A stretch of 64,000 nucleotides of DNA from Elsinoe ampelina (GCA_010093995.1 ML992517.1:262677-326676); one strand, 5' to 3'; shown: positions 273 through 38,566, counted from the stretch's first letter. Numbers and translations: made by a program. Notes: a model not told the origin generated them from the letters alone.

Positions 273-476
273 CTATTATAACTATAGTTCCCGCGTATAC
301 TATAATAGATCCTTGCTACTACTATATAGGTTAATACTATAAACTCTAAAGATATAAGAAAAAGGTAATAAGTTAAGTTATAGACAACTCTTAAAGAAAG
401 TAGACTACTAGCTAAAAATTTTAATATTCTCTTTGTTATATATTAACTTTTTATACTATTTTATTTATAACTAACT

Positions 477-3400
477 ATGCTAAGTATAGCTTACTCTAAC
501 TATAGTAACGACAACTATTATATAAGTAAGATCCCTCTACCCTCTACTAATAATAATAATAAACCTATCTAGTTATTCTATTATAACCTTATTCGCCTTA
601 ATAACTCTAACCTAAAGAAGAGATTATAAGAGTTAGATAGTATAATTACTCTATGTAAGGCCTTTACCTTTATTAAGTCTACCTATAATAAATAGGTTAC
701 TATATATAACTTAGTATATTTTAATACTCTTAATCTATATAACTAGTTAGACAACGTCCTTATTAAACTAAATATAGCTAATAGTACTACTAATAATCTT
801 ACTACCTAGGCCGCGTACTACTTTACTAATATTAGTAAACTTAAAACTAAACTAGCCTAGCTAAGAGCTAAGATAGAACGCACTATACTAGCCTCTTCTA
901 TATATGTATTACATTGTTAAAGAAGATACTAGACCCCGCTATCTTCTCTAGTAGTACTCTAGAATAGTTTAAGGTCTTTAAATATTAGATAAAGAATAAG
1001 ATATATACTAACGCTAACTACTTCTCTACTAAGGCTATCTAGTTTATCTACCTATACTTACGCCTCTCTAATAAAGTATATACCCTCGTTATAGACACCG
1101 CTAGTAATAATACTATTAGCGTTAATAAGACTCTTACTCTCCTAGCCTAATACTTTAAGAATCCTAACTATAAGACTATAGTACGTACTTAGTTTACTAG
1201 TCTCTTCTAGTGTAATATCTCCTTTAACTCCTTTATTAGTAAGTTTAATAAGTATACTTTCTACGCTAAGATTACTAAAGATAAATAGCTCTACTAGCTT
1301 TAGTAGAAAATATCTAGTAAGCTATATACTACCCTTATTAACTTCGATACTAATAGTCTTTCTATCTTTATTATAAAGGCTTATACTACTAATTATAATA
1401 TCTAGTAGAGTAACCTTATTACTAAGCGTACATAGGCTTTATGCCTTAGCCTAGCTATAAGCTATACCGCTACTACCTCTACTTATATATCTTATTCTAC
1501 CTCTATACTTACTACTCTAGCTACCTTCTACTCTATTACTAGAGGTGCTCTATAGCCTTTCTGTCTAACTTAGGCACTTACCTACTATATATGTAGTAAA
1601 CCTAGCTATATCTCTACTAAGTATATAGCTAGTACTTTAGAGAAGGCTACTTACGCTACTATACGCTCTATACGTATTAGTACTATAGAGGAGATATAGT
1701 AGCTCTAGAATCGCTTAGCTAAGTTAAGTAACTAAGTTAATACTAGTTCGGCTTATGAACTAGATCTAGTTTAGCCTTAGTTCGACCCTAAAATAGACTA
1801 TAAACCTACTAGTTTCTCTAGCTAGAGAAACAAGTAGCTAGAGAATAAGTCCTATTCTCTAGCGAAATAAGAGTAATTCGAGATAGATCTAGAGATATAT
1901 ACTTAATAAACAGCGTTATTAGCTACTATATCCCTGCTATTATAACTCCTATTACTATTTACAACTCTTATAATATAAGGGCTTAGTATTAGAGCGGCAC
2001 TTAGTAGCGGCTAGTTCCGCTTACGTAACGTACTTAAATATCCTATATAGCGCTTACGCCCGGGGCTTAATAGCAATTAGTTCTACTACTAACGGACTAT
2101 TTAGTTAGATAGGCGTTCTCTATATTACGATATATATAGCTTTAATATAAGGCTTTAATATATAACTACTTATGTACTATTATACTTTAAGCCTTTATTA
2201 ACACTAGCGCGCTTATTAGCGCCGTAGTTAATTATAACATCCTTAATAAGCTAAAGAGCTTTAGCTGCCCTATAGTACTAGCTAGTCCTATTTAGCTTTA
2301 AGCCTATAACAGTGTTCTAATAGAGTAAGTTATATATAGTATTCCTCTTACTACTACTATTTCTAGTAAGCTAAATAACTTTACTACCTTTCGTATTATA
2401 GATATTAGCTAATTTAATATTATTCTTAGCCTTAGCTAGCTTAAGGCTAATAGGGCTACTATTAACTATAAGTATAGCTAAGTTATATATAAAGAAGAGT
2501 TTTTACTAATAGTTATTAAGTAGAAGCTACTATAGCTAATTAAAAGACTAGAATCTAGATCTAAGCCCGGCTTAGATCTAGAAATCTAGCTTAGTAAAGC
2601 TGCCGTTTTAGTTTAGAATTAGTTTAGTTCTAGTTTAATACGTAAACTAGGTTCTAGCTTAGCTACTAAGATAGAGTAAACTAGACTATATTAACTACTA
2701 GCTCTTAGGTTAAACTTTAAGCTAAATTAGAGAGAGTTTAAGCTAATCTCCTATAGTACTTAGTTAATGTATAAGTTCTTCTACATACCTACCTACGTAA
2801 GTAACACTAAGTAAGAAAAGCTAACTATTGCTTTTATCGGCGCTACTACCTTCGTATTAGTAGCTAAATACTAAGAGAATAAGGTGTTTATAATCTTAGT
2901 AAAGAATATTAAAGATTACTACCGAATAGCCTTTAAGCTAGAACTAGACCCTATAGTAGTTCTCTCTAAAGAGCTATATAAATTTACTAATGTTTTTTCT
3001 AAGAAGTAATCTAATATACTACCTCTCTATTAGCTAGGATTCGATAACTAGATTATACTTAAGGATAGTACTAAACTACTATATATAGAACTCCTATAGC
3101 GCCTATTCTTTAAGAAGCTTAATATAGTAGAGTAATTTATTTATAAACACCTTAATAAAGGCTTTATTATACTAAGCTCTACTAGCTATTTCTTACCTAT
3201 TCTCTTTATTTATAAGCTAGGCGGAGGTCTCTACCTCTATATTAATTACTATAGCCTTAATAAGGTAACTAAGTAAGATATCTATCTACTACCTCTTATT
3301 AAAGAAACACTTACGCGCGTAAGTAAGGCTAAATAGTTTAGTAAGATTAATATCTATTAAGCCTTCTACCGCCTCTATAACTCTATTAATAGCGAGGATC

Positions 3401-6130
3401 TAACTATATTCTTTATATATATAGGTAACTTTAAGTAGTTAGTAATGCCTTTTAGCCTTACTAACGCCTCTATAGTATAGTAGAGATTTATAAATTAGAA
3501 TTTCGTTAATATACTAGAGCACTTTATATTAATCTATCTAGATAACATTCTTATCTATACTAATAGTACTTGCCGAGAGTACGCTAAGCATATTAAGCTT
3601 ATACTCTAGAGGCTTTATAAATTAGGCCTAAACACTAACATTAAGAAGAGTAAGTTCTACCTAATAGAGGTAAAGTACCTTAGTATTATTATTAGCCGAG
3701 ATAGAGTTAAGATAGACCCTAAGAAGGTAGAAGCTATTCGAGCATAGAAATAGCTAGCCCCTAGTAATACTACTTAGGTAAGAAGCTTTATTAGCTTCTA
3801 TAGCTACTATTACTACTTTATTAAGGGATTTAGTACTATTACTAAGCTATTAAACAATCTACTTAAGAAAGACGCTACGCTATAGAACGATAAGTGCACT
3901 ACTATATTTAATTATATAAAGCGTACTATTATAAGTATATCTATCCTTATATACTTTAATTACTTAAAGTAGATAGTTCTTAAGACTAACACTTCTAATA
4001 CTACTACCGCTGGAATTCTATTATAATATAACAAATCTAATATTCTTTAGCCTATTACCTTTTTTAGTAAGTCTATAAACAAAGCTAAATATAACTACGC
4101 TATCTATAACAAAGAACTACTAGCTACTATTTAAGCCTTTAAGGAGTAGGCCCTTAAGCTTATAAGTACTTAATCTAATAAGGCTATCTATATCCTTACT
4201 AACTACTAATCGTTAATATACTTTATAAAGACTTAGAAGCTATTACGCTACTAAGTACGCTAGGCCCTCTACCTTACGTAGTTTAACTTTAAGATTATAT
4301 ATAGGCCTAGCGCCGCTAATAGCAAAGCTAATATACTTACAAGAAGGAATAGAGATATACTATACTCGAAGGAAGACTCTAACCTCTACTAGACGTTATT
4401 ACTATATAAGGTGCTTAATCTATACATTATTAACGAACTAAATCTAGGTCGTATCTAAACTAAATTACTAGCTCGAGTCGAACTAGTATCTAGTTTGTTA
4501 TCTAGTTTATAAACTAGTTCGTTATCTAGCTTATTACCTATTTTACTTTCTATTTTATAACCTATATCGGCGCCTATTTCGGCTACTAAACTAGGCATCT
4601 ATATAGCACCTATAATAGCTATAGAAGAGCCTTTACCTCTTTTCGAAGAAGTAGCTAAAGCTAACTTATAGAACGCTAAGTGTAAAATAGTTCGAGGCAT
4701 CTACTATATAATAGAGACCTCCCTAAAGAGGAAATAGCTACTATTAACCGATGTTACTATTAATAAAGGGATATTATAGGTCGCTAGCTAACTATTTATA
4801 CTATAGTTAATAGCTATAAAGGTTATCTAAGAGGTCTATATATCGAAGAACTATATATATACTAGAGCTACTAAAACAGCTACTATAATTAAGACTACCT
4901 TTTTTATTCTAGGCTATAATAACTTTATTAAGAGGTTCGTTACTAATTACTATAACTATAAACGCTTAAAGGCTTACTATAGCTTACCGGCTGGCCTTCT
5001 ATTACCTTTGTCTATTCCGGAAAGGCCCTAGTAATATATTATAATAGACTTTATTACTAGTCTACTCTTAGCTAATAGCTATAACATAGTACTCTATGTT
5101 ATTAATTGTTTATCTAAGGAATAACACTTAATCCCTTACTTCTCTAGAGATAGAGGGACCTTAGCGTTTAAAACTACTAAGTTATTATTCTTCTACGTAT
5201 AGAAACTATATAGCCTACTAGATAGTATTACCTCCAACTATAGTCCTTAGTTCGTTAGCAACGTATAGAGTAGGCTCTACTAGATCCTAAAAATTATAGC
5301 TAAGCTCTTAACTGCTAGCTACTCTTAAACTAATAGCTAATTAGAGGTTATAAATTACAAGTTTAAGTAAGTTATTTATTTATATACTACGCGCTTTAGT
5401 AATTAGACCCTTATTCTACTAGTAGTAGAGTTCTCTACTAATACTAGCCTATTAGAAAGTACTAAGTTATTACTCTTTAAGGTTACTAGAGGATATAAGT
5501 CTAGGCTAAGCTTCTAGCTCCCCTCCGATATACTATTAATAAGAGCTAAGCTTAATAAGGCTAATATCCGAGCACTTACTAAATAACTAAAGGAGGCGCT
5601 ATCTATTACTAAGGTAAACCTCGCTATTGCCTAATTATATATAGTAGAATAGGCTAATAAACACCGCTAGCTAATAGAATTTAAGGTAGGCGATTTAGTT
5701 TAGTTATTAATAAAAAACCTCTAGCTTTAAGGTAATCTAAAGCTACTACTAAAACACGTTAGTCTATATAAGATCTTAGAGAAGTATTTAAGGCTATTAT
5801 ATAAGCTAGAGCTTCTACTAGCGCTATAACAAATTTACCTAGTATTCTATACTAACTTCCTAACTAAGTACCCTAATAACTCTCTTCTAGGCTAAGCCTT
5901 TAAAGAGCTACCTCTAATAGAGGTCGATAGTAAAGAGAAGTATAAGGTAGATGACATAATTAATATATATATGTTATAAGGGAAGCTAGTTGCCTATATA
6001 AGCTAGAAGAGATATCTAGAGAATCTTACCTAGTAGCTAATTAACAATCTTAAAGAAGTAGCTAATATACTACGTAACTATCTAGACTCTTACACGGATA
6101 AGCTAAGGCCGAAATAGATTAATAGATAGT
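477..6130 (+). pseudogene. gag-pol remnant of A copy 1 (protease, RT, RNase H, integrase, chromodomain); ends approximate
   Basis: AFI(D)T(G)A protease motif ~2195, IYLD(D)ILIY at ~3532-3560, IY(D)KELLA ~4100, DFIT(G)L(P) ~5048, chromodomain-like Y(E)VDDII..(W)K(G)Y..LT(W) at ~5940-6060. Many TAA/TAG stops. Confidence 0.9.
1974..2160. repeat. Solo LTR (187 bp) of another family inserted in A copy 1
   Basis: Absent from A copy 2 at the equivalent site (~27495). Flanked by 5-bp TSD TATAA (1969-1973, 2161-2165). Ends tataag...ttaata are compatible with RIP-mutated TG...CA. Confidence 0.85.
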
Positions 6131-6174
6131 ATATAATAGTGTTTAAGAGTAAACACGTTTAAGAGGAGAGGTAG

Positions 6175-6374
6175 TAATATAAGATAGATACGAACTAGAT
6201 TTAGTTAGGATTTAGTTTAGATTAGTTATATAATCTTAGTATCGCGGCCTAGGCTTCTAGCCGCTTTACCCTCGATATTATATATGCTTTATATACTAGC
6301 TTTTCTTCTTCTTCTAAGTCTTAATATCTTAATAAATAGACGTAATTAACTTCTTATCTTACTAGTCGTAATTA
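6175..6374 (+). repeat. 3' LTR of A copy 1
   Basis: Reverse complement of the LTRs at 23280-23482, 29340-29542 and 38567-38782. Confidence 0.95.
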
Positions 6375-6475
6375 CTAATAGGTTTATAATAGCTTTTAAA
6401 TACCTTCTAATATATAAAAATTAGTATTAAGTAAGAAGGTTCTTATAGTCTACTAAGCCTACTAAAGGTAACTAG

Positions 6476-6671
6476 TATTATAGCGTAGGTTACTTTCTAG
6501 TATTAAGTAGGGATACTTAGGCCTTATTACTATTATTATATTAAAGCTACTAGTCTATTACGTTATATATATCTATTACTATATTAGTTGTCTATAATAC
6601 TACCTATATATCTTAATGTTTCTTTATAATAATAGCTATAGGTTAGGTAACCTATATCTTAGTCTATAATA
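6476..6671 (-). repeat. 3' LTR of E
   Basis: Direct repeat of 38347-38542; adjacent PPT complement actattctctctct. Confidence 0.92.
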
Positions 6672-9006
6672 ACTATTCTCTCTCTACTAGTATCTATCCT
6701 AGATATAAATAGAAACTAGCTTATACCTTAGCTAGATACTTACCTATCTAGATAGCTCTTCCTTAGAGACCCTAAATAGGACTACTCTTAGCTATATAAA
6801 CTACTACCTATTAGACTCTCTTTAATAATAGATATAACTATAAGTGTTAAAAGATACTAGTATATTCTTATAGTTAGCTACTATCTCCTCTACTACTATA
6901 CGCTACTATCTTTATATATTTAACCTACTTCTAGTAAGTCTCTTATTCTTATTCTCTAATAGCTCTAATAGTTTCTCTTTCTTCTTACTTTTCTTAACTA
7001 TCTCTTCCTTATTATTCTTTATTATTATTATATCTCTAGAAGTAATTATACTATAAGAAGTAGAGTTAGAATTATTATAAGGTACTAGAACTAAGTTTTA
7101 CTTCTTATAGTAAAAGAAAGAATATACTCTAGTATAGTACTACTTCTTATATATCTTAACCTTATTCTAAGCTATATATACCTAGACCTTAATCTACTTA
7201 TAAATCTTAGTTACTTTTACCTAAGCTACTACTAAGTTATTAAAAAGAAGAATAGTAACTTTTTCTACTATAGTTAAATTATTCTAATAAATATACTTAA
7301 CTAATATATTACTTACTAGACTATTAATCTTTAGATAGATAGCTATAAGAAAAGTAAGATATATAGACCTATATATATTTAGCTTACTTAAAGAAGTAAG
7401 GGTAGTAAGCTTCTTTTTTATATATATATTAACTAGGGAGAAGTAGATACTATTCTTATTCTATTCTAGAGTCTTATAATTAGTACTAATACTATAGTAC
7501 TATAGCAGAAAAGTATAGTAAATACTAGTAGTAGGACTAGTAGAACTATATAAAGTATAAAGTATAGTAAGATAAATATTATTAGCCTTATAGAGAAAAA
7601 GCTTTTACTTAGTACTATATTTAGCCTTATCTTCTAAAGTAAAATACTAAGGAGAGATATTAATAATAGAAGTATTATTTAGAATTTTATAAGCCTTAAG
7701 GTCTATAACCTATTCCTTTATATAGTAATATATACTATAGACTATAATAGTATAATTACTCTTAGTCTTATTATCTAAGCTAAGGAAGCTCTATATAGTA
7801 TTAATACTATAACTAGTAGCTAGTAAACTAGGGTTAATATTAATATAGTAGAACTAAGTATAATTACTCTTCTAAGTATACTTAGTATAGTAAGAGTAGA
7901 AGATTAACTAAATATATCTATTAGAGTAATAAGCTATATAGAGATAGTAGTACTTAGAGTCTATATATATAGCTTACTAAGTAAAAAAATAAAATATATT
8001 TCTTAACTATCTAAGCTATCTCTTACCCTTAGAAAAACTAAAGTAGTAGTAGTATATCTTAATCTTCTCTAAGAAAATATCTATAAGATCTATATTAAAC
8101 TAAAACTTAAAGATATTTATACTAATATTTCTATTAGCTAACTACTTATCTAAAAGACCTTAATAAAAACTATTAAGAATTACTTTATATTAGTTAGTAT
8201 TAATATATTATTCTAGAAGTATAGTCTTATACTTAAAAGTACTTCTTTTAGTAGCTACTTACTTATAATAAGCTAAAGGAACTAACTACTAAAAGGTCTT
8301 TTAGTATATCTCTATTATATCTAGGGTACTATTAAGGTAGAAGTTATACTAATAGTTAATATAATAGTAAAGAAGATTCTAAGAAATATTAGAGAGAAGA
8401 TATAGATAATAGACTAATATATAGGTATATAGGTAGTAGATAGAGCTTTTAGTACTTAAATCCTTATTACGCTATTAGTCTATAATAATAGCTAGCTCTA
8501 TAGTACTAATACTCTTCTTTAATAATATAGCTATCTTTAATTCTTATAAGATACTCTTATATATATATATCTTCTTTAGATTCTCTTTACTAGGTTTAGT
8601 AGTAGTATCTTTACCTCTATCTATAGTAAGTATAGAGATAGAATAGTCTACTAAGATAAACTCTCTATTATCTCTAATATAACACTTCTTACTTAGGGAC
8701 CTAGTATAACTCTTATACTTAGGCTTCTCTTAAGGCTCTTTAATAGACTTAATAATTCTCTTATCTTCTTCTTCTTTATTCTATAGCTAATTTTATAGAT
8801 ATATATAAATAGACCTATATACTAAATCCTTAAAGTAGATAGAAGAAGCTATATAAGATTCTAGATCTAAGCTAGGCTTAGATTTAGAAATACTAGAGTT
8901 TACCTAAGTAGTAATATTATTCCTTATAGTAATACTAGTATACTATATAATTATAATAGTAATCCTAGCTAAATTAGACTCTAATATACTAAGCTTACTA
9001 TAAGTA

Positions 9007-9428
9007 TATTACGAACTATCTAAACATAGCCTACGCTAGTAGTCTAAGCTAAGCCGAGAATAAGGTAGTTCTACTTCTATAGTAGTATAGTACTAAGGTA
9101 AGAGTCGGAGAAGGTATGTCTTATAGATAATAAAGTACAATTAGATAGTATTATAAAGACTAGCCTTAGTAATACTAGTATTTACTATCTAGACGAGATT
9201 AACTATAGTACTTATAGAAGGTAAGAACTATATACTATATATAGTACACTCTATAGCGTAAGAGTTTAGTAGTATTAGAGTATTAGTAGTAAAGCTACTA
9301 TCCTATAAACACTATAAACTATTTCCTAATTAGGCTACGTTACGTGTCCTAGGTTGCCTTGTCTTAGCGTAGAGTTAATTAGTTGTCTATAACTTGTTCT
9401 ATAGGTCTCTTAAGAGACCTTCGTAATA
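9007..9428 (-). repeat. 3' LTR of B
   Basis: Direct repeat of the split LTR 22976-23279 + 29548-29665. Confidence 0.95.
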
Positions 9429-9525
9429 CTATTCCTCTTCTAGCTAGAGTCGTCCTTAACGTTTATAACTACGTTGTTCCTTAGGTTATCTCTTTTCTTT
9501 ATTTTTCTTATAGTTATAGCTAACT

Positions 9526-10110
9526 ATAGACAGCTTTTGTGTTAATAAGAAGAATAGAAGCTAAAAACCTCCGCGGTCCTAGAAGTAGCGTTATATCGAC
9601 ATAGCTAACACTTTATTAACGCCTAAGAATATTACGATAGTTACTTATATAAACTGTCTAGAATCGGGTATAGTATATTATTTTAATTAGGAACGGTTAG
9701 TGAAATGCGCTAAGTGCTAGAGGCATAACCGAAAATATAATAGTACTTTCTCGTTTAAGAAATATTACTAGGTAGGTAAGTAAAAGAAAGTTATAAAGGT
9801 AAAGAGCCTTTAAAAATAAAAGGAGATAGCTTAGCTAAGGAGGAATCTTATCGCAGCGTAATAGGCGCTTACTATAGCTAAAGTAGAGAACTTGTCTCTA
9901 TAGAAGAATATTATAAAGCTAGATAAGAAGTCTAATTAGATACTTCGTTATAAGATAGAAGCGTTAGGCGCCTTTAACGTAATAGACCCTTCTACTAAAA
10001 TCTCTTTAGGAGACTACAACTTCGTAGTAGACGAGATGCCTATTATTTAGATAGTTAACTAGTCCGATTAGGGTTTAGACCCTAGTAGATCTTTAGAGCT
10101 TATCGGGTAA
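9526..10110 (+). pseudogene. Antisense accessory ORF of B: Zn2Cys6-like cluster plus coiled coil, ~194 aa before RIP
   Basis: One 585-nt frame from ATA (RIP of ATG) to TAA. 9646-9738 reads (C)INCLESGIV(C)YFN*ERLVKCAKC*RHNRK(C), i.e. C-x2-C-x6-C-x9-C-x2-C-x6-C with 3 Cys intact and 3 as TAT. A K/E/R/L-rich helical stretch follows. Confidence 0.75.
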
Positions 10111-13100
10111 GATACTCTTCTAGTTTCTAGGTGTTCTTACTTTACTAATACTCTTTCTAGTAGATTAAGTAGTAGCGTTTCTAGTTAATAAGCTTATAAG
10201 TTATAACTCTCTCGATCTTATATCTAGGTTATTACGTCTCTTTATCTAGTTTAATTAGTCTAGGTATAGCGTCCTATAGTGCCTTTTCTAGTAATAATAT
10301 ATAAAATACTAAGTAGATCCTTATATATCTTAGTAGTTCTAGTTTGTATATGTTTTTATTTTTCTTTTTAAGGATCCTAAAAGGTCCTAACTTAGTGTAA
10401 TTTAGTTTTTTGCTTAGTCTTTTAGTTTTAATATTTTTACTAAGGAGGTAAACTTTCTTTCCCTCTTATAGAATTAGTCCTATAATTCTTTTTTAGTTAG
10501 TAAATTCTGCTATTCTTTGTAATATAAATACTATATTATAGTATAGCTAGTCGTATAACTTTTTAATATTAGTTACTAATATATTAGTGTCCTTAGATAT
10601 TAGCTTAATTCTAAGCGTATTATAGTATAGATCTAGGTATATTCTATAATTTACATAAAAGAGTAAGACTCTATTTACTAATTTTCTATTATTAATAGCA
10701 AGCTCTATAAGTAGTAATAGTATTGCCTAAGAATCTTGTTTATAGTTAAGGTAGTAACGTAGGTACTATTCTAGTACTTAATTAGCTCGCTTAGTTTGTC
10801 TATCTATTTATAGATAAAAGAAGGTCGACAATTTATGTTTAACTCCTAGTAGGTCTATAAATAATTACTAGAATTGTAATATAAATAACTTATCCCTATT
10901 AGTAATTAGATCCTATAGTACTCTATACTATAAAACGATTATTCGGAGGAAGGTAAAGGCTATATCCTCTATAGTTACTATTATCTTATATAGTATAAAG
11001 TAGTAATACTTCGTAAACCTATCTACTAGAACTAAAATGCTATTATACTTTACGCCTATAAGAGGCTCTTCTAATAATAGTAAGAGTCCTATAAAGTCTA
11101 TTATAACTAATTACTATAGTTTATCTAGTAGTAGTAAGAGTTATAGTAGGCTATATAGCTTATGTTATAAGTACTTAGACTTATAGTATATATCGTATAT
11201 AGTGATATATGTCTTAATATCGTTTTGAAGTCCTTTCTAGAGGTAGTTTTATATAATAAGTTTAATAGTCTTATTAATCCTACTATGTCCTACTATTAGG
11301 TTATTATAGTATATTTAAATAACTTTTTGTTTTTGTTCTTATATAAGCTTCTAGGTAAGGCTATATAGTTACTCTACTTTCGGGTACTTATAGACTAAAG
11401 TGCTATCTTACTACTTTAATATAGAGGCCTCTATTATTGTTATATTCTTTAAGTAATCTAGCTATTAGCTAAGAGCGTCTACTCCGCTATTCTCTAATTC
11501 CTTAATATAATAAATCTAAAAGTTGTAGCTTATAAGTGTTTCTAACTATTAAATCTATTATCTATTAAGAACCTTAGTTATTGTCTAATATAGAAGGTTC
11601 TTATAGTTAGTATAGACTTATATAGGTAAGGTTATTCCTTCTAGGTATACTCTCTACTTACGGAATGCTTCTATAATTATAAGTAGTTCTTTGTTATATA
11701 TATTATAGTTAAGTTTAGGTCTAGTTATTTTTTATAAGTAGTATATAATTAGGTAGCGTTGTCCTTATACGTCTTTCTACGCTAGATATACTTCTATTAC
11801 AAAGTCTAAGGCATCTAATTTCTAGTAGTACTTATTAGTCTAGGTCGTAGAGTACTAGTATAGGTACTATTATAAGTCTAAGCTTTAGCTCCTTAAAGGC
11901 CTACCTATATTCTTCGTTAAAGACAAAGCTAGTTTCTTTCTTCGTAAGGTTAGATATTAGCGTAGCTACTTTAGAGAATTCCTTAATAAACTTATAGTAG
12001 TAGTTAAAGAACTCTAGTAGCGCTTAAACTTCTTTAACTATAGTAGGTTCTAGCTAGTTATTTACTAACTTAATCTTCTTTAGATTAGGTCTAATGCTAT
12101 TAGTAGATATAATATAGCTTAGAAATTATATCTTATATTTATAAAACTTATACTTAGAGAGCTTTACTAGTAGGTCTTTTTCCTTTAGTTTTTATAGTAC
12201 CTTATAAATATGTCTTATATATTTATTATATATCTTAGAGAAAACTATAATATTATATAAGTAAGCTAAGATAAAGTTATTAAGGTACTTCCTAAGAGTG
12301 TTATTAATTAATTCTTAGAAGAATATAGGTATATTAGTTAGGCTAAAGAGTATAACAAGGTACTTATAGAGTCCTTATCTAGTCCTAAAAGCTATCTTCT
12401 ACTCTTTACTATCCTTTATCTATATTTAGTAATAGGCGTCCCTAATATTAATTATAGTAAACTATTTAGCTCTAATAAGTTAATTCTAAAGTTTGTCGAT
12501 CCTTAGTAAAGAATAATAATTCTTTCTAGTAATTATATTAAGTTTCTAGTAATTAATATATAGTTGTAGTAATCTATCCTTCTTAGGTACGAAGAGTACT
12601 CTATATATAATTAGTAATTTTAATAGTTATATAAATCCTTTCTATAGATACTTATTAATATATTTCTTAAGGAAATCTTTCCCCTTTTTTAATAATAGTA
12701 TAAGACCTTAGTAGTATATTAGGGATTTACTCTCCTTGAAAGGTATTTTATAATTCTATATTTTATTAGGGTGGTTAAGTGGGTAATTACTATACTCTTT
12801 AGAGTATAGTAATTACAATGTAACTTTTCGTGAAATTTTCGTGTTTTTTGATATTTTAACGTGCATTAGTAAGCGTATTTTACTAATAAAGATATTTTGT
12901 CTATACTATCAAAAATTCTGCATTTTCTAGTACTATTTTTGCTTATGTAATCTTAGATCCTGATTTTTAGTAGTGATTTCAAATTTCTTTCTTCTTCTAA
13001 AAATCAGGATCTAGGATTACGTAAGCGAAAGTAGTACCAAAAAATGTAGATTTTTTTATAGTATAGAAAAAATACTTTAGATTATAAAAGAAGCTTACTA

Positions 13101-13790
13101 ATACACGTAAAAACATCAAAAAACACGAAAATTTCACGAAAAGTCACGTTGTAATTATACCTACTCGACCACTCTATATTTTATGTTAGAGTAAGGCTAT
13201 AATACCTTCCCTTTCCTTAAATAAGTCCTTAAAGTCTTTATATTCTAGTAGAAGTACTTAATTACTTACGCTAGCGATAGCTCTAACTATTAGTCGTACC
13301 TATACTATTCTTATAGTTAGTATCTATAGAGCTAATTATACTTCCTATATTCTATAATTATACTTAGGGAATTCGAGTGTTTCTTTAATCTAGTCTACTT
13401 CTAGATTGTGTTATTAAAGCTAGTCTATACTAAGTACTATATTATACTATATATTAACTATATTAATTAGTTGTTTTTCTATATTTATTTTAATTTTAAT
13501 TATAATATTTTGTAGTTCTTAAGTAACTTTCCTATCCTTTTCTATAGAGGTTCTATCTACTATAGTAAGTAGGTAAGGTAACTCCTTCTAGTGTTAATAA
13601 GGTTTAAGCTAATTAGTAACTATTATAGAAACGTAGCTATAGTTAGCTCCTAAATCTATTATTACTCTTACCTTACTTCCTTATATCTAGGCTTCTAGTA
13701 TAAAGTAATTCGACATATAGATCTTTATTATATTAAGGCTTTAGCTAGTATTGTTATTATACCTCGATAGGTAATAACTAGCTAGTTTTT
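10055..13790 (-). pseudogene. pol remnant of B (PR, RT, RH, IN, chromodomain), interrupted by the MITE; ends approximate
   Basis: RT region ~12240-12620, RNase H Y(D)KELL ~11690, RI(HP)VF(H)..LLE and YYLI.(W)K(G)Y...NT(W) chromodomain at ~10110-10330. Confidence 0.88.
12767..13176. mobile_element. 410-bp non-autonomous fold-back element (MITE), hAT-like by TSD length
   Basis: TIRs tagggtggttaagtgggta (12767-12785) / tacctactcgaccactcta (13158-13176), 8-bp TSD TATTTTAT (12759-12766, 13177-13184), ~160-bp inverted arms 12810-12970 / 12997-13157. Confidence 0.9.
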
Positions 13791-14525
13791 TATTATTATA
13801 GCCTCTTAGATAAGTAGTTAATCCCTCCCTGTATATATCTATTATTAGTACTATATCTACTAAGCTAGCTATATTTTGTCGTTGTTTAATATAGTAAGGT
13901 AGACTTCTAGAGCTTAAGTCCCTTAATAGCTATAAAGTCTAATAATCCTCTATTAGTTATACTAAGTAGTACTATATACTTATATTAGTATAACTATTCC
14001 CTCTAGATATAGCTACGTATTAGCGTTAAAGATAAACACGAGTTATATAGACTTATCTTATTATGTCCTAGTCTAGTAGTAGATGTATATTATTATATAA
14101 TTTCTCTATATCCCTATAAGGTATACTTTAAGTCGTCCGCCCGGTAGTAGTATATTATCGTTGTTATTATTAGATAAGTTCTTATCTATGTTATTATATT
14201 ATAGTTATTTAATGTATTTTTCGTTATATTTCTCTTTGTCGCTACTGTCTCTAGTATAGTTATAATTAGTAAAGCTATACTAAGTACATTCTCGTACTTA
14301 GCTATAGAGAGTAGTACTACCTATCTTAATTACTAAGAAGTCTATAGTATACTCGAGACTTATAGCCTCTTCTCTAAGTACATTATATAAGTAGATAGTG
14401 TAGTACTACTTATAATTTAGATTTATACATTTCTAGAGCGATATATAATATACCTTTCCTTATAGTTTGCTATAAGAGCTAAAGGTAAGACTACTATATT
14501 ATTATATAGCACTTGCGTCCTAATA

Positions 14526-14756
14526 TGTTAGGGGTAAATTATATTAATACTAGTAAGTATATATAATAATTAACTTATAGTAGTATAAGGATAGCTCTTA
14601 ATTAGTAGTACAAATAATACTTAAGGAAGCTAACTTCCTTAGCTAGTATATAGTAAGATTAGAGCCTACACGTATAGGCTATCCGAAGCTAGCTAGACTC
14701 TAGATCCTTATACCTAATTAGAAGCTTACACCTTATCTCTAAAAATCTCTATAATA
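14526..14756 (-). repeat. 3' LTR of C
   Basis: Starts TGTTA; direct repeat of 21379-21609. Confidence 0.95.
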
Positions 14757-15128
14757 TTACTTCCTTCTCTAAGCTAATGTCCTTAGTAGCTAGCCTTAAT
14801 AAAAACCTATTAGCCTTTATAACTATTATAGGAAAAGAGTATCTAGTATTACTACTTTATCTACTTATATTCCTTATATAATTTTTACACAGTCTATATA
14901 TAATTAGTAAGGTTATTGTAGCTTTATCGCTTCTAGAAAGGTAAGTAATATACGCTTTATTTAGGCTTTATTTAGGATTTTTACCTCCTAGGCCCTTAGT
15001 GCTAGGACTACCTTTATTACGTAGGACAATAACAATAAATATAGCTAGAATATATTTCTATAATGTACCTACACTTCTTAACTTCCTTAATAACACTTAT
15101 TACATATACCGCACCTTCTTTGCCTATT

Positions 15129-16112
15129 ATAGTTGCCTTTAGTAGACTAATATATATTAGCTCTACTACCCTTAGTTACGCCTATAACTATGCTTTCCGC
15201 TACTAAGTTACCTATAACATAACTATACTCTATATACTGACTTATATACGCTATATATATAAGATTATAAAGCATAGTATAATTTATAGTAGGCTAGACC
15301 TTAAGAGGTATAACTACTATACTAGAGGTAATAGATCTTCTTATACTCTAGTAAGAACTTTACTAAGTAATACTCTTCTACGACATTACTAATACACTTA
15401 GGTTCCTATTGTATTTAATAGTTGTATTAAGTATATATACTAGTTCTATAATACTTATATCTAGGCTATTAATACTAGTACCTTTCCTAGGAATAGGAGA
15501 AGCTAAGACTCTACTATCTAGCGTATAGACTTAGCTCTTATACGTGCCTAGTATACCCTTACTTAGTAGCTTAAGTATTATAGGCATATTATAGCTCTTA
15601 GAGAAAATCCCTTAGAAATGCTAACTAAGGTGCCTAAGTCTAGCCCTAACATAGAGAGGCTATAGCTATTAGAGTAGAGGAGAATTACTAATATCCTAGA
15701 ATAGATAGCTATTTAGTAGTTTAGCTATGTAAGTTTATACTCTACTTGCTTCTAGTTTGTATACTAATAGCTAGAATAGCCTAGTCCTCTTAGGTTTAGT
15801 AGTAGAGCTCCTAGTAGTAGGCCTTATCTATACTTTAGGCCTAGTAGTAGTCCTAGGGGTAGTAGTAGTAGTAGAGGTAGAAGTAATAGTAGCAGGGGTA
15901 GTAGCGTAAGTTTATACCTGCCTATTACCTATATCGTATACTAATATCGTAGCTAGGGTAGTAGGGGTAGTAATAATAGTAATAGGGATAGGGATAGCCC
16001 TAGCCCTAATAGAGATAGGGAGGATAGAGAGAATAGAGATAATAAGGATAGTAATAATAGCAAGAATAGTAATATAAGCTAGAGCCTACCTATTATCTAC
16101 ACCGCTTACTAA
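15129..16112 (+). pseudogene. Antisense, apparently three-intron accessory gene of C: six-Cys motif, helical middle, Gly/Asp-rich tail
   Basis: Six TAT codons spaced x2-x10-x7-x2-x7 at 15243-15344. Three GTAAG...TACTAAT...TAG units at 15351-15401, 15729-15779 and 15906-15956. agt/aat runs are consistent with RIP of ggt/gat codons. Confidence 0.65.
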
Positions 16113-16539
16113 TCTTATAGTTTAGAATAATAAGGAAGATAGAAGTAAGAGAGGTAATAATAGTAAGGAGTTTAGTAGTTTAAGTAATAAGGATACTAAT
16201 AACTAGATAGACGTAGTATAATCGCTGTTATGTATTATATTAATCGCTTACTAATAGCATAGCTAGGATAAAGAGAATAACTTAGATATTGTTATTAATA
16301 AGGATAAGAATAATAAGTAGTCGTCGCGCTTGTCGCTTATAGGTCAGCTATATAAAGCATATATAGTATAGGTATTTCTAGCATTATTCTTGTAAAGATA
16401 CTAGGCTAAAGAGCTATAGATAAAAATAGACAGTCTTAATCCTTAAGCTAATGTTTCTATTAAAGTTATAAAGCTAAAGTCTCTAGTACTAAGTATCTTA
16501 TTATAAGTATATAATAGTATTACTACAAGTTATTTATTA

Positions 16540-19500
16540 TTTACTACTAAGTTGCTTATTCTTCTCTTAACCCTAGCTATGCTTACTACTTTCTCTAAAC
16601 TTCCTTAATAAGTTATCTATCTCCTTAAAGTCTTTTTCCTTTATCTATAAGCTTTTAGTCTTATTATATCCTTCCTACTTAAGTAGATATTTCTTCTTTC
16701 TTACGTATATAGTATACTCTATAAGAATCTTCTTTATATACTAAACTTATTCTCTATCTTCTACTAACTCTAGGGCTCTTATGTTTAGTAATTCTTCCCC
16801 TTCCCTAGGGTAAAAGAGCTTTAGAAGAGATATATAAAACACAACGTGTATATAATAAGAGCTTAGTAGCTATAGGTAATATACCTAAGAGTTAATTGCT
16901 TCTTTAATATAAAATAGACCTACGAATTTGTCTATTAGCTTTCTACTTAGAGCTTTAAGCTTAAGGTTCTTTATGTTTAGCTATACTAAGTCCTTTAGCT
17001 TAAACTTTATTAGGGTATACTTCTTATTATAGTACCGGGTTTAATACTTAGCTACGGCCTTTAAGCACTCTTAAAGATTTACTTATAGTATTTATATATT
17101 TTATACTTGTTATATAGCTACTAGTACTTCCCCCTCTAGCTACCTATCCTTAGGTAGGTTATAGAGGATTAGGTACTTTCCTAGAATAATAAAGAACGGA
17201 GTTTTCTTTATTGCTATATATATTAAGTTATTATATATAAATTTAGCTATATAAAGCAAATTTGGCTAGTCTTTAGAATACTCTCCTATAAATACTTAGA
17301 GGTAGTATTTAAGTGTTTAATTCTAGCGTTCTATTTGCATATCGGTTTATAGATAGAAAGCTATACTTAACCTACGCTTTACCTATAGTTAATAGCAAAT
17401 TTTAGTCTAGAACTAGCTTATAAATAGAGATTCTCTATCTAATATAATTCTTTTCTATATACTATATTTACAAATTACATACTTAAAGTAGACATCTATA
17501 AAGTCTTTTATAGTCTATATCTCCTTAGCTATAATATAGATTACTAGCTTTAATAATCTATTATAAATTACTAAGATTATGTTATATATGCTACTATTAT
17601 ATATTATAGAGGAGAGCTTTATAATAAAGTCTAGTATAACTTCTTTAAAGATATTAGAAAGAATAGGTAGAGATAATAGCTTACTATATAGTATATACTT
17701 TAGTGCTTTTAACCTTTAGTATATGCTATATGTCTTAATATACTTATACACTTCCTAATCTAATAATAGCTAGTAGTAGTATCTACTAATTAGATTATGC
17801 GTTCTTATAGCGCTATAGTAGCTAGCTATATAAGAGTTATAGTATTAATATAAGATTTCTTATCTTAGACTTAGTTTATTAGAAATATAGAGCCTACCCT
17901 TATATATAAGAGTTTTATCTTTATATTTATACTATGCTAGCGACTTCTTACTGCTTTAGGTATGCTCTTCCTGCTCTAGATTAGCTATATACTTTAAAGT
18001 AAAAGTATTCCTCTACTAAAGTATATAGATAGTCTATAACATTAAAGTATCTCTTACTAATATAAGTTTACTAGTAATAAGTACTCTTACTAGACAGCGT
18101 AGTATATATAGTATATATTCTATAGCACTAGTAGTTAGGCTAGATCTACGTTTATAGGTTATAGGCTATTAACCTATAACCTCTAAGCTATACTTAGGAG
18201 TAGAGCTAATCCTACTAACAAGTTATACTCTTATAGTAACTAGACCTAATCCTAGTTTACTTACTAAGTTTAGCTTATGTTATAAGGTAGAGAGTAATCT
18301 TATAAGCGCGTAGTTCTCCTTAAAGTAGTCTACTCTCCTTAAGGGCCTATTAGCTAGATTTAACTTGCTAGAGTAGTACTAGACTTCGAAGTTAAAGGCT
18401 CCTAGGTAGGACACCTATTACGCCTAGCGCGAGTTAAGCTTACTTATGTCGTATATACCTTATAGGTTATTATAGTTACTTAGAACCTATATAGTATACT
18501 AAGTGCCCTTAAGGTAGTAACGCTACTACTTAAAGCAATAGACAATTACGTATAGTTCTTAGTTATATACCTCCTAGATATGCTCTACTCTCTAAAGCTT
18601 CTTAGAGATAAAGACAACTAGGTGCTATTTCTCGTCTTTATATAGCTAGGAGAGAATACCTACTACTATAAAGGTTAATATATCTATCTCTAGGCGTATT
18701 AGTAGCTAGGGGTCGAAATGTTATAGTAAAGGCGCTTCTATAAAGCATGCTTTAAGCTAAATAAAGCTAGCTTCTATAGCTTCTAGCTATATAAAGGTAG
18801 ATTACTCTTTCTTTAAGAGATCTATTATAGAGGCTATTAGTTTTGTATAATTCTAAATAAATCTATAATAGAAGTTAGTAAAGCTAAGGAATAACTAAAG
18901 CTCCTTAATGCTAGTCGGTTAAGGCTATCTAGAGATAGTTACTACTCGCGTAGAATTAGCGTAGATACCTCGTATATCTATAATAAACCCTAAGAAGAAT
19001 ACTTACTTTATAGTAAAGATATACTTAGACAGGTTTATAAATAGTTTAGCCTATCTTAACTATTTAAGAATAGCGCTTACTACTCGCTAGTAGGCATCTA
19101 GATCTTTGCTATAAGTATAGATAAGAATATTATTTAGGTATACTATACATAGATAGTCTACTAATCCTTTAAGAGTCTAGTTAATATAGGCCTAGAAGGT
19201 AGTAGGTATATTAGTAAGCTTAAAAGGTATAACTAGGTATTTAAAATAGCTATAATATATTCTAAAGGTAGTCTTCTACTTATCTCCTAGGCTAATACAG
19301 ATTCTGTTATAAGTATCCTTTAGATCTAGAGTTATATAGTAATATATGCCTAATAGGTAGTCTAGCGTCTTACTAATTAAGGAGAGTAGGTAGTAATCCT
19401 TTATAGTAATAGAGTTAAGGCCCCTATAGTTAATATATAAATAAAAGGTACTATCCTTCTTTAGCATAAATAGGATAGGTACCCCTACTAGGCTTATACT

Positions 19501-21330
19501 ATAACGAATCTAGCCCTTCTTAAGTATATCTTTAAGGTATAATTATAGTACCTTAAGCTTATATAAAGAGAAGTTATAGAGCAGGCTATAAGGTAGCTCC
19601 TTACCTAGTAGAATAGGAATTTAATAATTCTCTTCTTTAGTAGTAGGCAGGATTTTAGTAGTATTAGTATTAAAGACGTCCTAGTAGTCTAATAATGTAT
19701 CTAGTACCTAATTTTCCTAGGAGACACTTGCGATTTAGACGTAGATAATAACTTTCTTGCCTTAGAGGTTACTATAAACTACACCTAAGAAGTATATATA
19801 GCTCTCCTCTTATTCTAGCTACTAGATTATTACTATCTAGATACGTAACTTGTCTTTAATACCCTAAGCCTAAGTCTGCTATCTATAGTCTAGCTATATA
19901 GCTTCTCTTTATAAGAAGGAGTTACCTAAGAGTAGCTCTAGCTCTTCTTTATCTACTCTATAAGTAATAGTTTTAACCTAGTATATTACGCCTCGGTTAT
20001 TAGTAAGTATTACCTATATCTTATATATAGTATATATAGCTTTCCTTTCTAACTCTACCTAGGCTAGTTAAGGTAGGTTACTTAGTACTAAGTTAAGGTT
20101 TATCTTAATTACTATATACTAGCTAATAAGGCTAACCTCTACTTAAGGATCTAGAATAACTTCTACCTTATAGTCGACCCTAGTTGCTTCTATTATAATG
20201 TAGATATAATATATCCCCGGTAAAATGTTAATAGCTCTATACCTTATAGTTCCGGAGGTAACTACGAAACTTAGCCTTTTCCCTAGGCCTGTCTTACGTA
20301 AGTAATAGGCTTCTTATTAGCGTCTAAGAGTTAGGCTTTCTTTCTATACTTATTTATATAGTAGCCTATCTTCTTATAGAAGTAGTATTTAACTTTCGAC
20401 TTATAGGAGAAGTCTTTCTTAGGGGCTAACTCCTCTTTATATTAATCCTTACGTTATAGCTTTTAGCTATATCTAGCTAAGTAATTACAATAGTTCTATA
20501 GCTTACCTATGCCCTATAGGTTATACTCTAGCGTAGATCCTAAGATAATAAGACCTTCTCTTGTTAGAGGTATAGTATAGTAGTTTATAATTACTTACTA
20601 AAGTTCGAGGCGAAGTTTTAAAAATAGGTACTATATATAGTACTTCTCTAAGTAGGGGGGTAGCTAGTCCTTAATTGTTTCTAAATAGGTAGTAAAGGCC
20701 CTAATACTCTATCTAGGAAGTTATAGCGTAGTAGTATACATAGTAGTTGCTTCTAGAGTGTAATTAATAGAATTAGAGAGCATATCTAGTAGAAAGGTCT
20801 TAAATTAGCCCTAGGTATACGATTTTATAAGTGGCTTGTACTTTATATAAGAGTATTATACTTCGTATAGGTCTCTTATAAGATACTAACTTACCTAAGT
20901 AACTTTCTCTTATTCTAACTAGAAGTTCTCTAGAGTAAGCTAGAAGGCTATCTTATAGCTCTAAGTAAATTCCTTATATTCTCTTAGGTGTTTCTCTTTA
21001 TATTTCTTAGAATTCTTTAGCCTTATACTACGCTTTATATACGAAGGTCCTATATCTTAAGAGGTATAGCACTTATAACTTCTAGCTACTAATCTTGTTC
21101 CTATATTACTTTAGATCTTAATACTATTTAGATTTACTCCTCTCTTAAGGAAAGCAATTTGTTTCTTAATCTATCGGAGAGTCTATTCCTATAGGAGATA
21201 ATCCCTTTACTATTCTATATTATAGATATGCTTCTCGAGCGAGGTAGTTACTACTAGTAGTTCTCCCGGAGTAGTTATAGGGGTTCCTATACCCTTCTTA
21301 TTACTAATAGAGCCTAACTATGTCCTTATA
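16540..21330 (-). pseudogene. gag-pol remnant of C; ends approximate
   Basis: Zinc knuckle K(C)YF(C)KKIG(H)YINK(C) ~20345-20400. The ORF-track peptide 19276-19467 is an RT fragment (KKD..LYINYRGLNSITIKD..LDLKD). IVYL(DD)ILIY ~19120-19146; chromodomain KYLLK(W)EGY ~16660-16700. Confidence 0.92.
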
Positions 21331-21378
21331 ATAGCTATTCTTAGACTACTTCCTAAGTAGAGTAAGGAAGTATTATTA

Positions 21379-21609
21379 TATTAGGGGTAAATTATATTAA
21401 TACTAGTAAGTATATATAATAATTAACTTATAGTAGTATAAGGATAGCTCTCGATTAGTAGTGCAAATAATACTTAAGGAAGCTAACTTCCTTAGCTAGT
21501 ACGTAGTAAGATTAGAGCCTATATATATAGGCTATCCGAAGCTAGCTAGACTCTAGATCCTTATACCTAATTAGAAGCTTATACCTTATCCCTAAAAATC
21601 TCTATAATA
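21379..21609 (-). repeat. 5' LTR of C
   Basis: Direct repeat of 14526-14756. Confidence 0.95.
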
Positions 21610-22975
21610 TAATACTTTATTTTAATAATTATATATTAGTAATTATCGCTAACTACCTTCTAAGGTTAGTTAATATCGCTACTAATTATAGAAAGCCTTT
21701 CTAGGTTAACTCCCTAGTCTAGCTATTTTATTAGTTACCTACGCTTAGATAGCTTATATAGGAACTAACTAGATTCCTACTTATCTAATAAGTAAATATA
21801 ACAAGAGTTATTATAATATACTATCTATAATAGCGTCGCGTATTAGCTCTACTACTTATTGTTAGTTATAGAGATATTAAGTATAATATCTAAAGAGAAT
21901 TCTCTTATCTCTTAAGTTATTATAGATCTCTTCTATGTTTCCTTACCTACGCTAAAGGTTATTAGGTCTTCTATAGTAGTGTTAGCCTTTATCTCTACTA
22001 GCCTAGCAACTATTATATATAATCTATTAGCTAGCGCCCCTTATTAGTAGTCCCTAGCTCGATACCTAAGTCTTTTATATTTAAAATATAAGTTGTCTCG
22101 TTTATACTTCTCTCTCTCTTTTCTACTAAGGAACTTTCCTCTATAGCTATAGCCTTATACCTATAAGGGGTAGCTTTCGCGTATAGCGTTAAGTTCTATA
22201 GAGTCTCTATAGTTTCGAGAAGAACATATATATCTAGTATTTACCTTATATTCTCTATAATATTCTATACGTCGTTCGTAAAGTCTATTATTAATAGCAA
22301 TTATAGTGTCTACTAGTTCTTAAAGGCTATTAGGTAGCTTAAGTATTATTTAGTCTTTAACTAAGTCGCTTAGTCCTTAGTAAAATACTAAGTGTTTAGT
22401 ACTATTATTCTAGTCTAGGTATATTATAAGTTATTAGAATTAGAAATAGTACTAGGCTATAGACCTACGTTATTATAGTTATTAGATCTTTGTCGTAGTA
22501 ATATATTCCTTATCTAATACGTTAAAGACTTACTTAATCTTAGCCTAGAATAGACTAAAGCTTTTAAAGATAGCCTTTATGTCTAGACTTAGTTACCTAT
22601 CTAGGTAGCCTTCTATATAGAGTTTAAACTACCTAAAGGTAGTACTCTTAAGCTATATACTAGTATAGAGGACCTTAGCTATATTATTAGCGTACTTATC
22701 TCTCTCTAGAGTAAAGAAGGCCTTAAGCTAGATAAGGAAGTACCTTAGGTAGGCGCGGTCTCTATAGAAGAGTTCTATCTCTACCTTAGGCTTACCTCGA
22801 CCTTTGCCTATACTAATAGACCTTCTATATTTACTCGAGGTTAAACTAGTAGTAGATATATCGTTAATAGTAAGTCTTCCTAGCTTACTAGTAATTAAAG
22901 ATATTAATAGTAACTTAGAGTAAGAGTTACTTATTAACCTTATAACGTACTATACTATAGTAAGAGTAGTTAAAA

Positions 22976-36900: not shown

Positions 36901-37700
36901 CTAAACTTCTAAAGTACTTTAAAAGGATTTAAGATATTATATCTCTAAGATCTTCTCCTTAGTAAGCTTCTAGATATAATTAAAATACTTAAAGCTACTT
37001 AGATACTTAATATCTATTCTACTCTTAGCTTAGATATAGTTCTAGATATAGGCTAGAAGCCCTTTAGTAAACTAAGTACCTCTTATAATAATATTAAGCC
37101 TAGTCTTACTAAGGGTATCTATAGCTCTTTTACATATCTAGTAGTATTATATTATCTCCTAGTAGAACTATTAGGGTACATCTTAAAGATATTCTAGGTA
37201 GGCGCGTAAAGTTATAAGGTAAGCTAAATCTATATTCTTAAAACTAAGTTTTATATTTACTTATAGGCTTTTCTAATCTTATTCTACCTAACTAGTATAT
37301 AACTTTATTTATTCCTAAATACTAGTAATATAGTATTAAGGGAGGCGTTATATAGTAATATCCTTAGATAGTTAGTAGGTACCTATAAAGGTATTCTATT
37401 CCTTAATAAACTCTATAACCTTAGAACTATTAAAGAAGAAAGCTCTCTACTAACTAGAGTTTAGTACTAGTATTATTACCTATACTATAAATAGCTATAT
37501 AGTCTAATTAATTATTAATAGTAGTAGAGTTAGTTATAATAGTAGCTATAAGAATAAGGTTAAAGAAGAAGCTATAGCCTTCTTCTTCTTAATAGATAGA
37601 AGGGACTTACCTATTCTAGTAGACTTTTCTTTATTATTATTACTACTAGCTAAGGTAAGAGGTAGTAGATCTTAATACTTATTAAATAATAAGCTTACTC
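31000..37700 (-). pseudogene. gag-pol remnant of E; boundaries approximate
   Basis: SLIDYFS(G)Y(DQ)V..ESRD, L(PQ)GATNSIA(Q)F and (P)F(VDD)..IK(GP) at ~33880-34110; EV..FLGV(C).YYRL(W)VRNF at ~33570-33640. Confidence 0.85.
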
Positions 37701-38542: not shown

Positions 38543-38566
38543 CTAGATAATAGACTATAATATAGT

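Follow-up and report, generated by a model that had tools for sequence, protein, structure and literature searches.

Does a frame that lies antisense between pol and the 3' long terminal repeat (LTR) of a decayed retrotransposon of Elsinoe ampelina, here called chromovirus B, represent a gene of that element, and what kind of protein would such a gene encode? The element lies in a stretch of 64,000 nucleotides (nt; GCA_010093995.1 ML992517.1:262677-326676, one strand), the whole of which, at its full length of 64 kb, is referred to here as the window, and the frame occupies positions 9526-10110 on its plus strand. Our analysis indicates that this frame is almost certainly a copy of an accessory gene of an ascomycete Ty3/gypsy chromovirus lineage, killed by repeat-induced point mutation (RIP). 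The fuller reading, in which this dead but conserved accessory gene also specified a nuclear regulator, seems to us evenly balanced between right and wrong.

The entire 64-kb window is RIP-mutated, such that every 2-kb block has a GC content of 0.22-0.38, a TpA/ApT ratio of 1.7-2.2 and a (CpA+TpG)/(ApC+GpT) ratio of 0.01-0.35, and no open frame of at least 80 amino acids (aa) occurs between positions 2000 and 12000. A prior reading made from the DNA letters alone (hereafter the sequence-only reading) had described a single 585-nt frame at this place; the place and strand are exact and the 195 codons are colinear with those of homologues without a frameshift, beginning with codon 1, where ATA stands opposite ATG, and ending with the C-terminal '..G stop', but the frame is not open, having an ATA at the start position and 17 stops inside before its terminal TAA. 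Mismatches between the window and intact relatives are strongly directional, with 107-128 in the C>T plus G>A direction and 30-39 in the reverse, whereas pairs of intact relatives are nearly symmetric (45-55 versus 34-45). Many of the stops stand opposite TGG, CAA/CAG or CGN codons of the intact relatives, and this pattern, together with the directional excess, identifies the damage as RIP decay and the window copy as dead.

Homology searches revealed the family to which this relic belongs. Read through with X at its stops and compared by phmmer with 1.84 billion representative proteins, the window frame matched 37 proteins at E <= 1e-3, 19 of which lie at E <= 1e-10 (best E 1.4e-19), with matches 81-373 aa long and mostly about 170-230 aa, and when these 37 homologues were in turn aligned to the window by tblastn their matches were confined to 9526-10068. 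Searching with a single member brought the family to 63 proteins and searching with a 28-member profile to 97 proteins, 94-410 aa in length; among 8000 scored candidates of 411-2000 aa, no form that was longer or fused reached E <= 1e-3, which is weak evidence. All named members are annotated as 'hypothetical' and come from Exophiala, Fonsecaea, Capronia, Knufia, Circinaria and Aureobasidium, while UniRef labels two members 'Zn(2)-C6 fungal-type domain-containing' and one 'B box-type domain-containing', and the ESM Atlas returned unnamed Ascomycota clusters without a Pfam family and nothing else. Pfam itself gave no match on the window frames of 9400-10300 (plus strand) and 2001-9600 (minus strand). 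The protein of intact relatives is about 190-220 aa long and consists of a basic N-terminus, a module of six cysteines, a helix of about 60 residues and an acidic, aromatic tail (..DW..).

Within the window, the carrier of the frame is, to judge from its reverse transcriptase (RT), RNase H, integrase (IN), aligned chromodomain and LTR pair, a Ty3/gypsy chromovirus. Pfam matches on the X-read-through of 10000-17500 (minus strand) comprised RVT_1, RT_RNaseH, Integrase_H2C2 and SH3_Tf2-1, and the pol of the related metagenome contig L001 aligned by tblastn to 13740-10049 with 40-47% identity from the RT to the chromodomain and 29% at the protease (PR) end, whereas the remaining gypsy copies in the window reached just about 28-33% identity to it. 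This alignment extends to residue 1112 of 1137 and so covers the Chromo domain of L001 at residues 1055-1102, and the chromodomain of the window pol rests solely on it. The LTR pair is given by the 85.6% identity of 8978-9428 with 22949-23279 plus 29541-29665, and the junction of the LTR end and the polypurine tract (TCGTAATA followed by CTATTCCTCTTCT) aligns with TCGTAACA followed by CTWTCCCC in intact relatives. Because the antisense frame lies between the polypurine tract and pol and overlaps the pol end (by at least 61 nt in the alignment), the anatomy of the sequence-only reading, an antisense gene between pol and the 3' LTR whose stop overlaps the end of the chromodomain frame, is right.

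The same arrangement recurs in related elements. Scanning metagenome contigs for family homologues yielded 10 loci, in nine of which a chromovirus pol lies just downstream on the opposite strand, convergent with the open reading frame (ORF), and the contig of the tenth (L007) ends about 300 nt past the ORF, which is too short to tell. An intact ORF faces an intact pol, or the contig-cut 3' end of a pol with its Chromo domain, in L001, L002, L003 and twice in L004, the longer of these contigs additionally carrying RT, RNase H and integrase, and the ORF-pol overlap in the metagenome relatives amounts to 88-139 nt in the chromodomain-coding end of pol. Since nine of the ten loci have a convergent pol and the profile retrieves 97 proteins, the antisense gene evidently belongs to the element lineage and not to a single transduced copy. 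In these related elements the frame is conserved and intact, with Cys and not Tyr at the positions where the window has TAT, so that nothing found there speaks against the sequence-only reading on these points.

Upstream of the gene the relatives also agree. About 85-100 nt separate their main ATG from the 3' LTR/polypurine tract, all six aligned sequences have an LTR end, a polypurine tract, a GTACATAAC-like motif, a CT-rich tract and TCATGGCTRACNATG, and the conserved upstream anatomy held in common runs from the LTR end through the polypurine and CT-rich tracts to ATGGCTRACNATG. Across the window and five intact relatives, ATGGCT.AC.ATG is invariant barring G>A changes in the window, where an upstream ATG (now ATA, 9516-9518) precedes the main start (now ATA, 9526-9528) by 10 nt, out of frame. 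The places of TCATGGCTRACNATG in the contigs are about 3400-3416 in L001, about 537-553 in L002, 391-406 and 6898-6913 in L004 and about 1115-1130 in L007. The out-of-frame ATG opens a short overlapping upstream ORF preceded by the CT-rich tract, and it may be an element of translational control or part of a core promoter.

Comparison of codons in the related elements points to a protein kept as such. Among L001, L002 and one of the two L004 copies (L004b), the ratio of nonsynonymous to synonymous substitution rates (dN/dS), a check that the sequence-only reading had proposed for copies spared by RIP, ranges from 0.095 to 0.123, dS being saturated; third positions show 0.52-0.57 differences per site, first and second positions 0.22-0.34; and over the first 140 codons, outside the pol overlap, the corresponding ratio of proportions (pN/pS) is 0.23-0.31. 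The antisense frame is thus under purifying selection as a protein in these elements, at a dN/dS of about 0.1. A frame antiparallel to the ORF, in the pol sense and 216 aa long in L002 and L003, was considered as a second coding candidate and rejected, because its wobble falls on position 1 of the plus-strand frame and its pN exceeds its pS. Such antiparallel open frames (548-1195 in L002, 75-722 in L003 and 1225-1683 in L007, all minus strand) are a by-product of codon usage that could mislead gene callers.

What protein was this? The sequence-only reading had pointed to C-x2-C-x6-C-x9-C-x2-C-x6-C with three cysteines intact and three replaced by TAT, and this holds in the window, where the motif reads Y-IN-C-LESGIV-Y-YFN*ERLVK-C-AK-C-*RHNRK-Y (asterisks, stops) with Cys codons TGT at 9655, TGC at 9706 and TGC at 9715 and TAT codons at 9646, 9676 and 9736. 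That the TAT codons were formerly Cys codons is also confirmed, as these three positions hold TGT or TGC in every one of the four intact relatives compared. With at least three Cys required, the window's six frames contain the pattern a single time; 100 first-order Markov simulations gave 0.02 on average (at least one occurrence in 2 of 100). In the 119 relatives collected, the exact x2/x6/x9/x2/x6 spacing with all six Cys is kept by 86, which holds among relatives of 25-60% identity, and by 107 once Tyr may stand in for Cys; the remaining 12 are mostly N-terminal truncations. The consensus spacing of Gal4-type Zn2Cys6 domains is C-x2-C-x6-C-x5-12-C-x2-C-x6-8-C, and 89 of the 119 fit it, 86 of them as x2/x6/x9/x2/x6.

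A structural model adds a fold to this pattern. AlphaFold2, run on the relative P0005 with a 28-sequence alignment (mean predicted local distance difference test, pLDDT, 81.7), predicts a helix at residues 21-34, short helices at 45-49 and 65-70 that both begin where a CxxC pair has its second Cys, a long helix of residues 80-142 with a pLDDT of about 98, and a low-confidence tail. In a Foldseek search of the PDB with the full model, Zn2Cys6 DNA-binding domains (Pho7, Ppr1, Leu3, Gal4, Put3, AlcR and Hap1) were the best 11 of the 19 rows listed (22 matches), all with E >= 0.69, and with a domain-only model (pLDDT 70.1, five sequences) they were the top 9 of 14 matches with E >= 0.93. VIA-align gave Z scores of 2.0-2.6, and in a wide search of 48,161 chains nine reached a Z of 2, including Lac9 and Pho7; for the Lac9 domain (1cld), 33 of 33 residues could be superposed at 1.6 A, with a Z tied with unrelated chains.

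For the long helix, a homodimer prediction scored 0.56 where the best of three controls scored 0.00, and the mark used for this score was reached by 21 of 30 same-chain pairs and 0 of 23 single chains in calibration (17 of 29 and 0 of 30 for eukaryotes), the prediction itself having been run without an alignment and, unlike the calibration, with zinc included. Three runs agree in at least 98% of contacts with a partner pLDDT of at least 84, and the contacts (107 with 107, 93 with 121 and 89 with 128) describe an antiparallel coiled coil along the helix. The protein is thus predicted to form an antiparallel homodimer through its long helix, and the coiled-coil-like segment that had been noticed after the Cys motif finds its counterpart in both the predicted helix 80-142 and the predicted homodimer along it.

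From these elements we infer a mechanism whose probability we put a little short of even, namely that the gene encodes a zinc-holding, dimeric, nuclear nucleic-acid-binding regulator of the element's own LTR, expressed from an antisense transcript of the 3' LTR. The transcript would begin within the U3 end of the 3' LTR or just inside it; the six Cys of its product would hold zinc in a Zn2Cys6-like cluster; the long helix would form the homodimer, in the antiparallel arrangement predicted; and the protein would, in the nucleus, bind nucleic acid sequence-specifically and regulate that LTR. By analogy, it might be the retrotransposon counterpart of retroviral transactivators.

Several results weigh against this proposal. 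The Pfam Zn_clus (PF00172) cut-off of 21 bits was reached by 0 of 27 and 0 of 20 members scanned, the best E-value being 0.0021 and the best printed score 18.2 bits (the L007 ORF, below the cut-off), and the matches below the threshold are mostly crosswise, with the first Cys half falling on the model's second half and the second on the first. Sequence searches of the PDB are similarly reserved, as the domain profile found Leu3 best at a non-significant E of 0.13, its halves swapped too, and the full profile found coiled-coil proteins only (best E 0.03). The structural scores are weak throughout, as the Foldseek E-values and the VIA Z scores of at most 2.6, tied with unrelated chains, attest. 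In Gal4-type domains such as those in the Gal4 and Ppr1 structures, the basic, DNA-contacting residues lie between Cys2 and Cys3, where the present family has a mean of 0.50 K/R (consensus V-N-H-G-V-V), the basic residues falling between Cys5 and Cys6 instead (2.59, L-R-H-Q-R-K). Gal4, Put3 and Hap1 dimers are parallel, unlike the antiparallel one predicted here. The copy in the window is without present function, and blastn of 9000-10400 against the window found no second copy of 9430-10110 there. The proposal also moves away from its data by degrees: homology, synteny, selection, the Cys pattern and RIP decay were observed, fold and dimer are predicted, and binding of zinc and DNA, the promoter and the target are inferred. 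The Gal4-type reading consequently stands in part: the spacing fits the consensus and the order of the fold matches is suggestive, but family membership is not established. In view of the sub-cut-off Pfam scores, the swapped halves and the misplaced basic residues, we call the module Zn2Cys6-like, possibly with its halves permuted, and do not file it as a family member.

Other explanations of the same locus have to be set beside this one. If the Cys/Tyr pattern had arisen by chance in a RIP-scrambled spacer, or the frame were a one-off fragment of a host gene, one could understand its 17 internal stops, the want of a second copy in the window and a background in which Tyr codons make up 9.2% of six-frame window codons; neither version would produce a match of E 1.4e-19 to proteins of the same length or the same place in nine of ten independent loci, and a mere 0.02 occurrences are expected per window, so that chance and one-off capture are refuted by homology, synteny and the Markov expectation, and we give them practically no credence. 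A functional role of the antisense RNA itself, with the protein secondary, is more seriously meant, since the 88-139 nt overlap with pol makes any transcript complementary to the genomic RNA, and double-stranded RNA formed with the 3' end of that RNA could feed or damp RNA silencing; regulatory antisense RNAs of retrotransposons are discussed in the pertinent parts of PMC7264820. An RNA-only role, however, would not keep six Cys in 86 of 119 relatives at 25-60% identity, nor does it sit with strong purifying selection on the protein frame outside the overlap (pN/pS as given above), and we consider it very improbable.

More weight attaches to the view, which we still think doubtful, that gene and protein are as described and the protein is not a DNA-binding regulator. 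Its Cys module would then be a zinc-stabilised interaction or RNA-binding module and the whole a dimeric rod serving as an adaptor, for instance in assembling particles, in RNA handling, in nuclear import, in directing integration jointly with the chromodomain, or in titrating a silencing factor of the host. Here the family's position below the Zn_clus cut-off, its match in swapped half-order only, and the lack of basic residues in the first Cys half become favourable points, as does the geometry of the dimer, since in an antiparallel arrangement about 60 helical residues would separate one Cys module from the other. Among relatives, the search described above revealed no host-type zinc-cluster factors of greater length (weak evidence), and the sections of the review PMC7264820 on antisense ORFs of LTR retrotransposons assign a function to none of them. 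Against an adaptor speak the consistent top rank of Zn2Cys6 DNA-binding domains, the sole folds to hold it, the basic second Cys half, and a layout of basic N-terminus, Cys cluster, dimerising helix and acidic/aromatic tail that would suit a small activator. The nuclear regulator of the LTR keeps the place assigned to it above.

A further extension of the regulator reading is suggested by contig L004, which holds two tandem chromoviruses with one LTR in common (1-1616 versus 6491-8171). Between the two elements, 158 nt of LTR (the R/U5 part) are 99% identical and 718 nt of the pol 3' end 93%, whereas the stretch of U3, spacer and ORF in between has 42-64% DNA identity and proteins about 27% identical, and the borders of this cassette are sharp (158/159 and 898/899). 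In retroviral reverse transcription, intermolecular first strand transfer is established, and the L004 borders would fit such a transfer followed by a switch back in pol. U3 and the antisense gene are inherited together, from which functional coupling need not follow. On the hint of these near-identical flanks around a divergent U3-plus-ORF, the lineage might encode its own transactivator, a permuted Zn2Cys6-like antiparallel dimer that recognises its own U3, with U3 and gene forming an exchangeable 'regulatory cassette' that determines which elements are activated together, a proposal that we regard as rather improbable. At the border of common R/U5 and variable U3 in L004, a palindromic, TATA-like CTATATAG occurs at 143-150 and 6641-6648 and, being palindromic, could serve transcription in either direction.

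Sequencing runs offered some side observations on this part of the element. In run X1, from which the window probably derives, summed contig depth is about 80-600 over 9303-10211, 72,000-354,000 over 9000-9302 and 5,200-98,000 per bin over pol; this quantity is neither a copy number nor a basis for ranking gene parts and serves as a hint only. By that hint, the U3-plus-ORF part of chromovirus B seems rare in run X1 while its flanks match very many contigs, and the borders of the low-depth region resemble, under the same caveat, those of the L004 cassette. Run X3, which bears another organism label, has several short contigs over 9580-10102 with 80-96% identity to the antisense ORF, and as their differences are mostly A>G and T>C they suggest less RIP-mutated copies in another organism.

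The remainder of chromovirus B and its surroundings is shaped by nested insertions, and all features are collected in the table below. The second nested element carries a pol of a different family at 16819-19671. The insertion site of element A has its uninterrupted counterpart in the 3' LTR at 9304-9310, and copies related to element A lie at about 273-6845 and at 35536-42220. These copies share flanks beyond the 209-bp LTRs (2161-6845 with 27497-22812, 82%; 22842-26866 with 38118-42218, 77%), which suggests that the nested structure was duplicated and not inserted independently. The right third of the window holds diverged direct repeats (47377-49069 with 54729-56412 and 51191-54028 with 58434-61201, 64-67% identity) that are probably further RIP-mutated elements.

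Table. Features of chromovirus B, its antisense gene and the elements nested in it, in window coordinates.
Feature	Position	Strand	Basis
RIP-inactivated antisense accessory ORF	9526-10110	+	195 codons, 17 internal stops; phmmer matches and end-to-end alignment
Relic of conserved start context TCATGGCTRACNATG	9513-9528	+	DNA alignment with 5 intact relatives
Six-Cys motif C-x2-C-x6-C-x9-C-x2-C-x6-C, here 3 Cys and 3 TAT	9646-9738	+	Pattern search, codon alignment
Predicted long helix / coiled-coil segment, window codons ~77-146	9754-9963	+	AlphaFold2 of P0005, carried over via alignment
3' LTR of chromovirus B	8978-9429	-	Inner end ...TCGTAATA, relatives TCGTAACA; aligned with LTR ends of intact relatives
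Polypurine tract, plus-strand complement CTATTCCTCTTCT	9430-9442	-	Directly inside LTR end; alignment with five intact relatives, which have CTWTCCCC...
pol of chromovirus B (PR-RT-RNaseH-IN-SH3-chromodomain), RIP-degraded	10049-13740	-	Pfam matches, tblastn with L001 pol
Second nested LTR element, in gag region of B	14471-21729	.	LTRs 14471-14871 and 21327-21729, 79% identical
5' LTR of chromovirus B, split	22949-29666 (22949-23279 plus 29541-29666)	-	LTR-pair alignment
Nested element A, 6.3 kb, 209-bp LTRs, inserted in 5' LTR of B	23274-29542		Repeat alignment

For the window itself the result is modest, as its copy is a dead relic, and the consequences lie with the family. About 100 'hypothetical proteins' of fungal genomes and metagenomes are, by our assignment, retrotransposon genes, and members labelled automatically as Zn(2)-C6 or B-box are not to be counted as host transcription factors. 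Antisense genes of LTR retrotransposons are, in the relevant passages of PMC7264820, without recognised fold or function, and this family gives a concrete handle on them: with a conserved and selected frame, a zinc-cluster-like module, a predicted dimer helix, an activator-like tail and a fixed place in the element, the function of an antisense gene becomes testable by ordinary assays.

Among known systems, the closest by position is brtn, described as an antisense additional gene of Boty-like chromoviruses of Botrytis cinerea in the passages that mention it (PMC8365987, PMC4227169, PMC7264820, PMC5987419), and one Monilinia transcript reported there as similar to a truncated Pol and BRTN (PMC5987419) is consistent with brtn adjoining pol. 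Both brtn and the present gene are extra genes of fungal Ty3/gypsy chromoviruses, antisense between pol and the 3' LTR, a likeness that was compared by position only. The host of brtn is Botrytis, whereas the named relatives here come from the six genera listed above; among the named rows of the 63 and 97 matches none is called BRTN and none comes from Botrytis, most rows being nameless. We take the genera of the named relatives to be Eurotiomycetes, Lecanoromycetes and Dothideomycetes rather than Leotiomycetes.

In plants, antisense ORFs between pol and the 3' LTR are known from Grande (gene23), RIRE2, Retand and PvRetro13, and the part of the review that covers such ORFs describes no clear similarity to other proteins (PMC7264820). 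They resemble the present gene in position and orientation, lineage-wide presence and proposed nuclear or regulatory roles, and differ in hosts and lineages and in that the fungal family has a defined six-Cys module and a predicted dimerising helix. Nothing in the literature searched, in which subscription journals were mostly uncovered, describes zinc-cluster-like antisense genes of fungal chromoviruses. Antisense ORFs at this position were already known in plants and in Boty (brtn), and what may be new is the zinc-cluster-like module, in a family with which brtn may prove identical.

Gal4-type Zn2Cys6 factors (Gal4, Ppr1, Put3, Hap1, Leu3, Pho7 and Lac9), whose domains bind two zinc ions and CGG-type DNA sites, are alike in Cys spacing, in the short helix after each CxxC (predicted here), in ranking first, though with weak scores, among the structural matches, in a helical dimerisation segment after the cluster (likewise predicted here) and in fungal restriction. 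Unlike them, the present family stays below the Pfam cut-off in 47 of 47 scans, with halves swapped, basic residues in the second half and a predicted antiparallel dimer, and its protein of about 200 aa lacks a regulatory middle domain and is encoded by a retrotransposon. A functional analogy may be drawn with human T-cell leukaemia virus 1 (HTLV-1), whose HBZ, a leucine-zipper factor that acts as a dimer, is encoded antisense and transcribed from the 3' LTR. That the HTLV 3' LTR has an antisense promoter is noted in the corresponding part of PMC7264820. The two proteins have no relation in sequence or fold and different DNA-binding principles, and one belongs to an animal virus and the other to a fungal retrotransposon; the analogy is functional only, between small, dimerising factors that an LTR retroelement encodes antisense at its 3' end, of which the fungal one would, like HBZ, act in the nucleus.

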